A stretch of 64,000 bases of DNA. Source: a virus. Lineage: Duplodnaviria; Caudoviricetes. Under the pieces are notes generated by a model, which worked only from the letters and a program-made list of their open reading frames with translations, was not told where the DNA came from and made no database searches. The stretch's first letter is position 1, and the number at the start of each line of letters is the position of its first letter. Where the stretch lies: IMG/VR virus record IMGVR_UViG_3300028549_000365, positions 128,001 to 192,000 of that record. One strand, written 5' to 3'. Made by a program: the position numbers and the translations under genes. Shown one piece after another: positions 5,723 through 6,978 of this stretch.

Positions 5723-5872
5723 ATGAAAGTAAGAATGTCATTAGTAGCTGCGTCAGCTATTGTTAAATTAAATACTAGAATAAAAGACTATTCTTTAAAA
5801 GCACAAGTTCTACAATCTAGAACACCAGGTAAATCAATACCATTAAGTACTACTGTTAAACAGGATAACTAA
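5723..5872 (+). CDS. Small basic protein (49 aa) inside the tRNA cluster
   Basis: AAGGA RBS; MKVRMSLVAASAIVKLNTRIKDYSLKAQVLQSRTPGKSIPLSTTVKQDN; 3-prime end overlaps a tRNA-like element. Confidence 0.45.
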   Translation: MKVRMSLVAASAIVKLNTRIKDYSLKAQVLQSRTPGKSIPLSTTVKQDN

Positions 5873-5971
5873 CTGCACAAACTTTGTTAGACTATACCGC
5901 AACGACACAGGTTCAGCGCATTCTAGTCTAACATCAACATAATGTTATGGGTTCAACTCCCAAGTAGTACA
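5847..5971 (+). ncRNA. tRNA-like RNA with extended anticodon arm
   Basis: Acceptor GTACTACT/AGTAGTAC-A, D arm GTTA-AACAGGA-TAAC, T arm TGGG-TTCAACT-CCCA, central 10-bp stem TGTTAGACTA/TAGTCTAACA with a 29-nt loop. Confidence 0.55.
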
Positions 5972-6040
5972 CTAGACAGTTTCTCCAATTACAGTTTAGA
6001 TTCCAGCGTAGAAGTTTTTAACACTTCTTCTACGCTGTTA

Positions 6041-6117
6041 GGGTTGTTAGCTCAGCTGGTAGAGCACTCGGCTCATAACCGAGCGGTCGATAGGTTCAAA
6101 TCCTACACAACCCACCA
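6041..6117 (+). tRNA. tRNA with CAT anticodon (Met or Ile2-lysidine)
   Basis: Canonical cloverleaf: GGGTTGT/ACAACCC-A-CCA, CTCGG-CTCATAA-CCGAG, T loop TTCAAAT. Confidence 0.93.
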
Positions 6118-6127
6118 ACAATATTAT

Positions 6128-6227
6128 GTATAGCCTTTCATGTGGCGAGAAGTGCTGGTTACGACCGGCAGGGCATGGTAACTTATGTTACACATATTCC
6201 TTATGGGTTCAACCCCCATGCTATACA
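6128..6227 (+). ncRNA. tRNA-like RNA with 6-nt loop (TTACGA) and very long variable arm
   Basis: Acceptor GTATAGC/GCTATAC-A, arm TGCTGG-TTACGA-CCGGCA, ~30-nt variable hairpin (GTAAC-TTAT-GTTAC), T arm ATGGG-TTCAACC-CCCAT. Confidence 0.6.
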
Positions 6228-6364
6228 CAGCTATGAATATTATATAGTATAATATGATGTCTATAAACTAGATCTTAAATATTGGTACTGTAAAATCTAC
6301 TTTAATATAAGATTTATTATGATTATAGATTAGTCATTTGTAACTATAAATATTCATACTTTAT

Positions 6365-6563
6365 GTAACTATAGCTCAGTCTGGTAGAGCGCGGGGATAT
6401 CAGTGTGTTCTAATTTGTGTATGAGATACACAGCACACTCCGAAGTCATTGGTTCGAATCCAAAGCTTAGTCTGGTAGAGCGCGGGGATATCAGTGTGTT
6501 CCAAAAGTATTTTTACTTGACATACACACTCCGAGGTCATTGGTTCAAATCCAATTAGTTACA
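6365..6563 (+). ncRNA. Double tRNA-like RNA: one acceptor stem enclosing two D/insert/T modules
   Basis: Acceptor GTAACTA/TAGTTAC-A. Each module has D arm GCT(C/T)AGTCTGGTAGAGC, stem CGGGG/CTCCG enclosing 41 nt, and T arm ATTGG-TTC(G/A)AAT-CCAA. Confidence 0.7.
6373..6554 (+). repeat. 91-nt tandem direct repeat with divergent 23-nt cores
   Basis: Unit 1 is 6373-6463, unit 2 is 6464-6554. Three mismatches outside the cores 6411-6433 and 6502-6524. Confidence 0.9.
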
Positions 6564-6583
6564 CCCTTACGTTTATCGTTTGA

Positions 6584-6655
6584 GTACACTTAGTTCAGTA
6601 GGATAGAATCTGCCTCAAAAGGCAGGGGTCGCTGGTTCGAGTCCAGCAGTGTACA
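6584..6655 (+). tRNA. tRNA-Asp-like body with remodelled anticodon loop (TCAAAA)
   Basis: GTACACT/AGTGTAC-A; TAGTTCAG..GG.TAGAAT, CTGCC/GGCAG and GGGTCGC.GGTTCGAGTCC resemble bacterial tRNA-Asp; no GTC anticodon and no CCA. Confidence 0.65.
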
Positions 6656-6871
6656 CATTATGTTTCCTGTAACTTTATGTTCTAGATGATCGTTTTCTAA
6701 CGGTAGTTTCTTTCTGTGTTATTGGAGTTTACATTGAAGAATAATATATAGTAAGATGGAAGAGTAGCTATATATTATATTCCTTTTATATTGACTTTAC
6801 AAAAAAGATATGGTGTATTTATATACTGTTATCACTGTACGTAGTCTGACGGTGATCTTCCGCTTAAATAT

Positions 6872-6978
6872 GTACTTGTAACTCAGAGGTAGAGAACACT
6901 CTAGATTAAACCTAGCACGCGGTACTAGTTAGAATCATTATTAGGGTGAAGTCGTTGGTTCGATTCCAACCAAGTATA
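6872..6978 (+). ncRNA. tRNA-Ile(GAT)-like body with 42-nt anticodon loop insert
   Basis: GTACTTG/CAAGTAT-A, CACTC/GGGTG stem, TAGAT at loop start, AAGTC-GTTGG-TTCGATT-CCAAC. Confidence 0.65.

Follow-up and report, generated by a model that had tools for sequence, protein, structure and literature searches.

Predicted non-decoding tRNA look-alikes with a common acceptor end behind the nuclear shell gene of a phage

What use could a phage have for tRNA-shaped genes that lack a usable anticodon? The usual view of phage tRNA genes is that they act as codon supplements or replace tRNAs that are cut by host defenses. The question arises from a stretch of 64,000 nucleotides (nt) of a Caudoviricetes genome, which we call the window and which corresponds to positions 128001–192000 of a 222-kb record (IMGVR_UViG_3300028549_000365) in IMG/VR, a public viral-contig collection. 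About 1.4 kb of sequence behind the gene for chimallin, the nuclear shell protein of nucleus-forming jumbo phages, is devoted to tRNA-shaped RNA genes, namely six look-alikes (elements A to F) around one real tRNA, tRNA(CAT) (Table 1). All of these genes lie on one strand and form a single intergenic block that is closed by a strong terminator. An initial annotation, made by reading the letters of the window, had pointed out that five of them begin with GTA and end with TA(C/T)-A followed by C, without an encoded CCA, and that the bodies between these ends resemble different tRNA families. It had proposed that the ends converged on one recognition determinant. Here we examine how exceptional this shared end is, what kind of RNA carries it, where it may come from and what may read it.

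The acceptor end shared by five elements

Inspection of the acceptor stems bears out the description of the five elements, in letters as well as in coordinates. Elements B to F share G1-U2-A3 opposite U70-A71-C72 (U72 in F), followed by A73-C74, and CCA is encoded in none of them. As the same annotation had stated, CCA is encoded by tRNA(CAT) and by element A, both of which read A-CCA. The further statement that the signature is absent from these two genes is correct for tRNA(CAT), which is the sole canonical tRNA of this genome and has no GTA end, so that the signature is indeed specific to the look-alikes. The statement does not hold for A, which shares U2-A71, A3-U70, A73 and C74 with B to F and differs at pair 1-72 only. 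The full signature is therefore present in five of the seven elements, and in part in a sixth.

To gauge the rarity of this end, we can turn to other viral tRNAs. An unbiased sample of viral tRNAs that have G1 and an identical D arm comprised 124 genes, and none of these begins with GTA; among the 564 tRNAs that ARAGORN predicts in control viral loci, just one does. Across IMG/VR, GTA-start tRNAs occur in more than 118 loci (chiefly Lys-UUU, Asn, His, Phe and Ile-UAU), and other sampled viral loci never contain more than two such genes. Because GTA starts are this infrequent and do not exceed two in any other locus, five GTA-start genes in one cluster are exceptional, and chance is excluded as the explanation.

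The interior of the acceptor stems behaves differently from the outer end. At pairs 4–7, only 14 of 80 letters are identical among the five elements, which is about the random level, yet every pair is standard, as are all 35 acceptor pairs of B to F. Positions 1–3 and 70–73, on the other hand, are identical across B to F except for the change of C72 to U in F. Since saturation with compensation at pairs 4–7 stands beside invariance at pairs 1–3, this comparison supports a separate purifying constraint on the outer end. We consider that one processing or binding partner probably uses the outer end as a common handle. The shared recognition determinant proposed in the initial annotation likewise appears to be a fair reading of a pattern in which pairs 1–3, N73 and N74 are invariant while pairs 4–7 vary. 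An origin of the GTA/TAC ends from a mobile element, similar to miniature inverted-repeat transposable elements, was rejected because there are no further copies elsewhere in the genome.

The annotation had also noted a short hairpin with the same ends between the chimallin gene and the cluster. We find this hairpin as described; along its 5′ strand it reads GUAUAGC, exactly as C does along the 5′ side of its acceptor stem. The hairpin probably belongs to the same family, either as a minihelix or as a relic with an internal deletion.

Table 1. Features of the RNA cluster and its surroundings (positions in the window)
Feature	Position	Strand	Description
Chimallin (phage nuclear shell protein) gene	3173..5041	+	phrog_4795 'nuclear shell protein', E 1.7e-47; Pfam PF25677 on homologues; directly upstream of the RNA cluster
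Short hairpin with C-type acceptor ends	5084..5117	+	UGUAUAGC/GUUAUACA; 8 base pairs (bp) including one G.U; 18-nt loop
Element A	5622..5699	+	AUAGAAU/AUUCUAU-A-CCA; 5-bp anticodon stem, 6-nt loop UUACCA; ARAGORN tRNA-??? (ac); Rfam tRNA 45 bits
Element B	5847..5971	+	GUACUAC/GUAGUAC-A then cua; T arm UGGG-UUCAACU-CCCA; no standard D or anticodon arm; no CCA
tRNA(CAT), anticodon CAU (Met or Ile2)	6041..6117	+	GGGUUGU/ACAACCC-A-CCA; ARAGORN; Rfam 62 bits; sole canonical tRNA
Element C	6128..6227	+	GUAUAGC/GCUAUAC-A then cag; anticodon arm of 7 bp closed by UACG tetraloop; no CCA; fold z −2.3
Weak copy of TATATTATTAATATAG, 3 mismatches	6309..6328	+	36 nt upstream of D
Element D	6365..6563	+	Acceptor GUAACUA/UAGUUAC-A then ccc (ACCC), no CCA, around two tandem 91-nt modules; fold z −2.5
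Element E	6584..6655	+	GUACACU/AGUGUAC-A then cau; no CCA; ARAGORN tRNA-??? (aa); Rfam 46.6 bits
Element F	6872..6978	+	GUACUUG/CAAGUAU-A (G1.U72 wobble) then cgu; standard D and T arms; no CCA; Rfam 39.7 bits with a 42-nt insertion
Intrinsic terminator ending the RNA cluster	7004..7035	+	10-bp stem and T run

A retained tRNA frame with a rebuilt anticodon arm

Apart from the anticodon arm, much of the tRNA frame is in place. All seven pairs of the acceptor stem form in all seven elements, and the five pairs of the T stem are complete except in B and tRNA(CAT), which have four. The T loop conforms to UUCRANY throughout, and at least four of the six look-alikes, D, E and F among them, also contain a standard D arm with GG. 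Because the acceptor stem, the T arm and, in D, E and F, the D arm are kept, the L-shaped fold and both ends are conserved in the elements. The canonical arrangement of a 5-bp anticodon stem and a 7-nt loop with U33, a three-base anticodon and a purine at position 37 is found in none of A to F. Elements A and E have loops of 6 nt, C has a 7-bp stem capped by UACG, D and F hold 40–42 nt inside the stem, and B has no anticodon arm. The lesions are confined to the decoding arm and are structured. From these features, A to F are predicted to be genes for non-decoding tRNA-shaped RNAs, in which the anticodon arm is closed or replaced.

Model-based scoring gives a mixed picture. The gathering threshold of the Rfam tRNA model (RF00005) is 29 bits; A, E and F score above it (Table 1), as does the second module of D (31.4 bits), and B and C give no match. 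The folding z-scores of B, C, D and E range from −2.3 to −3.9. Matches to the Rfam tRNA model in the whole genome all fall within 5622–6978. A scan of the 222 kb for a T arm combined with a 7-bp acceptor closure recovered convincing GC-stemmed tRNA-type T arms in the seven cluster elements only, and the remaining matches are weak AT-rich chance closures.

The bodies of the elements differ considerably. In B, which has the lowest z-score (−3.9), the minimum-free-energy fold closes the acceptor and the T arm around a centre of 75 nt with a 10-bp hairpin, which in turn holds a T-arm-like relic (5898–5914). Element C has a long variable arm and the T arm AUGGG-UUCAACC-CCCAU. The body of E resembles phage tRNA-Arg(UCU), as seen by alignment to the tRNA-Arg genes of RaK2 and Cronus; relative to these, CUCAAAAG (5 bp and a 6-nt loop) stands in place of the CUUCUAA loop and 2 nt are missing at positions 26/27. 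When E and C were compared with phage records by BLAST, all matches were to tRNA genes. In F, the anticodon stem CACUC/GGGUG encloses 42 nt, consisting of a 35-nt hairpin and the 7-mer AUUAUUA, as delineated by Rfam and by ARAGORN with introns allowed.

Each of the two tandem modules of D comprises a D arm, an anticodon stem with the 7-mer AUAUCAG followed by a 34-nt hairpin insert, and a T arm. Outside a core of about 23 nt, the two modules are the same at all but 3 positions; the core itself is wholly different, and both versions form hairpins (GUGUAU-GAG-AUACAC and AAGUA-UUUU-UACUU). Near-identical flanks around an unrelated core suggest cassette-like exchange or homogenization of the flanks. 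A search for antisense targets of the inserts revealed no complementarity above 12–14 nt in the 222-kb genome. We also observed a 9-nt direct repeat, GTAACTATA, at 6340–6348 and 6365–6373, by which the 5′ acceptor strand of D is copied 25 nt upstream.

Origin of the end and its possible readers

The same type of acceptor end occurs on canonical phage tRNAs. In IMG/VR, the full signature with A73 is present in 18 of 29 GTA-start cases of tRNA-Lys(UUU) and in 7 of 11 of tRNA-Phe(GAA). Seven of the tRNA-Lys(UUU) and three of the tRNA-Phe(GAA) cases also lack an encoded CCA and continue with C. Examples of this form are given by tRNA-Phe genes in the viral loci L031–L033 and L038. Unlike the cluster elements, these canonical tRNAs have anticodon loops of the normal 7 nt, and no locus holds more than two of them. 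Because the same end is found on canonical phage tRNA-Lys(UUU) and tRNA-Phe(GAA), convergence is not required: GUA...UAC-A is an acceptor type that occurs naturally, and inheritance could account for it. The convergence of ends on different bodies, as the initial annotation had it, is not demonstrated. Descent from an outside lineage of GTA-type tRNAs was also considered and rejected; with the signature positions excluded, the elements are as similar to GTA-type tRNAs as they are to control viral tRNAs. In bacteria, GTA starts belong mainly to tRNA-Lys(CUU) genes from Clostridia and Bacteroidales, which have U2.G71, and no host was assigned from these.

In a search for chimallin homologues and two scans of the corresponding loci, the nearest metagenomic relatives were found to share 48–55% chimallin identity. 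Beside their chimallin genes they hold between zero and three tRNA look-alikes, all with other ends, and the stretch after chimallin cannot be aligned with that of the present phage. Three relatives (L006, L008 and L011) have no look-alikes at the chimallin locus. A 205-kb relative (L007) carries a tRNA(CAT) beside chimallin and two look-alikes (4571–4643 and 8628–8698), one with a 6-nt loop and the end A-CCA, the other with an anticodon arm of 7 bp and a GCAA tetraloop. In the look-alike at 4571–4643, a T run directly follows the T arm and acceptor strand and may double as a terminator. L010/L025 contains a class-II look-alike with a 6-nt loop (7221–7315 in L010), flanked on one side by a conserved promoter-like motif and on the other by the polymerase gene.

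Aberrant look-alikes also appear in unrelated viral contigs, where we counted 6 among 117 control genes and 15 among 101 GTA-start genes. A link between the GTA start and an aberrant anticodon arm (Fisher p = 0.02) is not relied on, since the GTA set contains near-duplicates. Acceptor and T arms are intact, and anticodon arms truncated or closed by tetraloops, in the viral loci L034, L035, L037, L039, L065, L097/L137, L101, L123 and L128; the arm consists of a 3-bp stem with GCGA in L101 and of 6 bp with AAAC in L039. A look-alike of the same sort is present in L344, a bacterial contig from a metagenome-assembled genome of Campylobacterota. Anticodon-less tRNA frames seem to be widespread in phages.

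As to the reader, the initial annotation had named a synthetase, a CCA-adding enzyme, a processing nuclease or a nuclear export factor of phage or host as candidates and had suggested a search of the genome. We could link none of these candidates to the end. We could find no phage CCA-adding enzyme, no class I or class IIb synthetase core, no RtcB, Rnl1 or Rnl2 ligase and no RNase Z-type fold in the 222-kb record, which has an estimated completeness of 83% and a G+C content of about 30%. The elements were not classed as mimics of YrlA or Y RNAs either, as the 222 kb contain no Ro/TROVE domain and Rfam gave no Y-RNA-like match. Any dedicated phage partner lies outside the searched families. Since CCA is not encoded and no such phage enzymes were found, maturation would have to use host enzymes. 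CCA-less tRNA precursors of T4 and CCA-less tRNAs of the Bacillus type mature by way of the RNase BN/Z and CCA-adding pathway. These tRNAs resemble B to F in that the 3′ end is not encoded, so that a cut near N73 and CCA addition by the host would be needed. We know of no requirement of this pathway for C74 directly after A73.

The explanation that we favor, with about even confidence, is that A to F constitute a lineage-specific, expanded family of tRNA-frame noncoding RNAs, sharing a selected acceptor end of the tRNA-Lys/Phe type that is read by one partner. The elements would be transcribed within one or more units ending at the terminator and would be cut out like tRNAs by host enzymes, with RNase P acting at G1 and with an RNase Z-type or exonucleolytic cut after A73 or C74, followed by CCA addition. 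G1-U2-A3:U70-A71-C72 together with A73-C74 would be the part of the frame that the common partner reads. The most economical history would be that tRNA genes carrying this end, or recombined onto it, expanded and were remodeled, after which selection fixed the end. Such RNAs might engage a tRNA-binding host factor, as its decoy or sponge, or might provide a stable scaffold for variable hairpins. Several observations weigh against this explanation. The Rfam tRNA model gives no match to B and C even at E ≤ 5, and F folds no better than shuffled sequences (z −0.7). No orthologous cluster was found in any relative at 48–55% chimallin identity. No partner protein emerged, and the neighboring open reading frames (ORFs) 7385–8884 and 5723–5872 have no Pfam or PHROG family match. 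Finally, because the bodies are no closer to GTA-type tRNAs than to other viral tRNAs, inheritance of the end from one ancestor is not demonstrated either.

Other explanations account for parts of the same evidence. The end could be a historical residue, left when one GUA-type tRNA gene (for example, of the tRNA-Lys/Phe type) was amplified locally, with copies that are now decaying pseudo-tRNAs and an end without a reader. The tandem duplication in D, the T-arm relic in B, the truncated C-like hairpin at 5084–5117 and the repeat of GTAACTATA are signs of turnover consistent with this account, as are the similar T arms of B and C and of D and F, and the zero to three elements with other ends in relatives. 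However, neutral decay would not spare pairs 1–3, A73 and C74 in five copies while randomizing pairs 4–7, nor would it leave all 35 acceptor pairs, and almost every pair of the T stems, intact. The damage, moreover, is found only in the anticodon arm and takes the form of stable closed stems instead of random lesions, and we consider a mere residue unlikely. Alternatively, the signature GUA...UAC-A-C could be an address label on anticodon-less look-alikes that copy the tRNA-Lys/Phe end and are bound by one dedicated partner. This partner might be a decoyed host tRNA-targeting defense nuclease or synthetase, or a phage factor that sorts RNAs of the phage nucleus, and the variable arms would be cargo or a blocking device. 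We regard so specific a role as distinctly unlikely. The least probable account is that the elements are working decoders with one synthetase reading the end, either as four-base readers (A with UACC, C with UACG, E with CAAA) or after splicing of the inserts (D with AUC, F with UAU). If the last stem pair is opened, the loops of A, C and E do expand to 8 nt, with U33 and with a purine at position 37, and D and F would regain a 7-nt loop on a 5-bp stem if their inserts were removed exactly; the codons ATA (3673) and GAT (3324) are also very frequent. The frameshift suppressors sufD, SufA6 and SufJ are comparable to the elements in that the anticodon arm of an otherwise intact tRNA is one nucleotide longer or shorter. 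They differ in that the present loops are closed by Watson–Crick pairs, which engage the would-be positions 32–38 and leave only 6 or 4 nt unpaired, in one case as a UACG tetraloop, and in that in-frame quadruplets are not avoided in the phage genes (observed versus expected: GGT-A, 1079 versus 922; CGT-A, 117 versus 100; TTT-G, 486 versus 522). Since cognate quadruplets are not avoided, efficient four-base decoding is excluded. As for splicing, a group I intron would be much larger than the inserts of 34–42 nt, Rfam reports no Intron_gpI match in 5000–7400, no bulge-helix-bulge motif was seen (by eye only), and neither RtcB nor another RNA ligase was found in the 222 kb. With no intron core in the region and no ligase, an intron-containing tRNA of the group I or bulge-helix-bulge type was rejected. 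The anticodon AUC, and U37 in F, would be abnormal in any case.

The 5′ GUA could also mark a transcription start instead of a processing site. The RNAs would then be leaderless, with TATG placing G at +1 as in the late promoters of PhiKZ, and UAC would merely pair with the initial nucleotides. For the non-virion RNA polymerase (nvRNAP) of PhiKZ, the late-promoter TATG with G as +1 is necessary (PMC4666361; PMC12809450). The present phage encodes an nvRNAP beta subunit (ORF 9006–10484), and TAT precedes G1 in three of the five elements (C, D and F). From the genomic frequency, we estimate the chance of TATG at about 4% per site and at about 6e-4 for three of five. Elements B (TAA) and E (TGA) lack TATG, though single substitutions cripple the PhiKZ promoters. 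Because the +2 position is of little weight in PhiKZ, such a start leaves U2 and A3 unexplained. TATGTA is not enriched in intergenic DNA (7 sense and 9 antisense sites, 8.7 expected), and the late-promoter motif is known from PhiKZ, whereas the chimallin of this phage is only about 25% identical to those of cultured chimalliviruses. A uridine at −1 is, besides, the usual preference of RNase P. Taken as the source of the shared end, a transcription start is highly unlikely.

Genomic setting and related RNAs

The phage carries a conspicuous promoter-like 16-mer, TATATTATTAATATAG, at about 20 intergenic sites, which lie 20–80 nt upstream of genes on the + strand and are often followed by AGTGT. 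Examples are found at 8945–8960 in the window and at 9226, 21331, 25339, 136945 and 193800 in the coordinates of the whole genome (G000). In two of the relatives, L010 and L011, the nvRNAP beta gene is likewise preceded by this word (CCATATATTATTTATATAGG). On the basis of this distribution, TATATTATTAATATAG probably represents the main promoter class of the phage. The only versions that precede the RNA elements are the weak copy upstream of D (Table 1) and a similar weak stretch at 5549–5569 upstream of A. In addition, two copies of the 15-mer GAATA(T/A)TATATAGTA, at 6235–6249 and 6739–6753, precede D by 130 nt and F by 133 nt. The copies may be further promoter-like sites or footprints of duplication.

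Between A and B, a 49-codon ORF (5723–5872, + strand) is preceded by an AAAGGA ribosome-binding-like site and overlaps the first 26 nt of B. Just past the terminator, positions 7054–7127 (+ strand) give a weak, sub-threshold match of 21 bits to the tRNA model and may represent another decayed tRNA-like remnant. A group I intron was detected at 20479–20870 (− strand, Rfam 72 bits), and the relatives L006, L007, L013 and L016 also carry group I introns close to their polymerase genes. The isoleucine codons of the genome number 3673 for ATA, 1631 for ATT and 351 for ATC. As ATA is by far the most common of the three, the canonical tRNA(CAT) may be a lysidine-type tRNA-Ile2 instead of tRNA-Met.

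Among known systems, the closest counterparts by type of RNA are RNA C and RNA D (species 1 and 2) of T4, small stable RNAs with tRNA-like ends that reside in the T4 tRNA cluster and are processed with the tRNAs. To our knowledge, these RNAs do not decode and no function is known for them. The present elements are likewise located in a tRNA cluster on the same strand and combine tRNA-like acceptor and T-arm ends with a non-decoding centre. T4 has two such RNAs among eight real tRNAs, whereas here six look-alikes surround one. Unlike RNA C and RNA D, the cluster elements share a specific 3-bp end and adjoin the nuclear shell gene of a nucleus-forming phage. TRNA-shaped RNAs that are not aminoacylated and make use of host end processing and CCA addition are also known from the gammaherpesvirus MHV68 and from mascRNA-type RNAs. 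These are eukaryotic, unrelated in sequence and made by other transcription machinery, and the likeness is one of mechanism only.

A tRNA fold that is kept together with a rare, selected end points to use of the tRNA shape itself, in processing, stability or docking. The pattern also points to a reader that specifically recognizes base pairs 1–3. The cluster adds to a largely undescribed class of anticodon-less tRNA look-alikes. If the end does act as an address label, these RNAs would be phage-encoded tRNA-mimic decoys or sorted RNAs, a class that has not been described for nucleus-forming phages. With five natural members that carry the same end on different bodies, the cluster offers an experimental handle for finding the reader.

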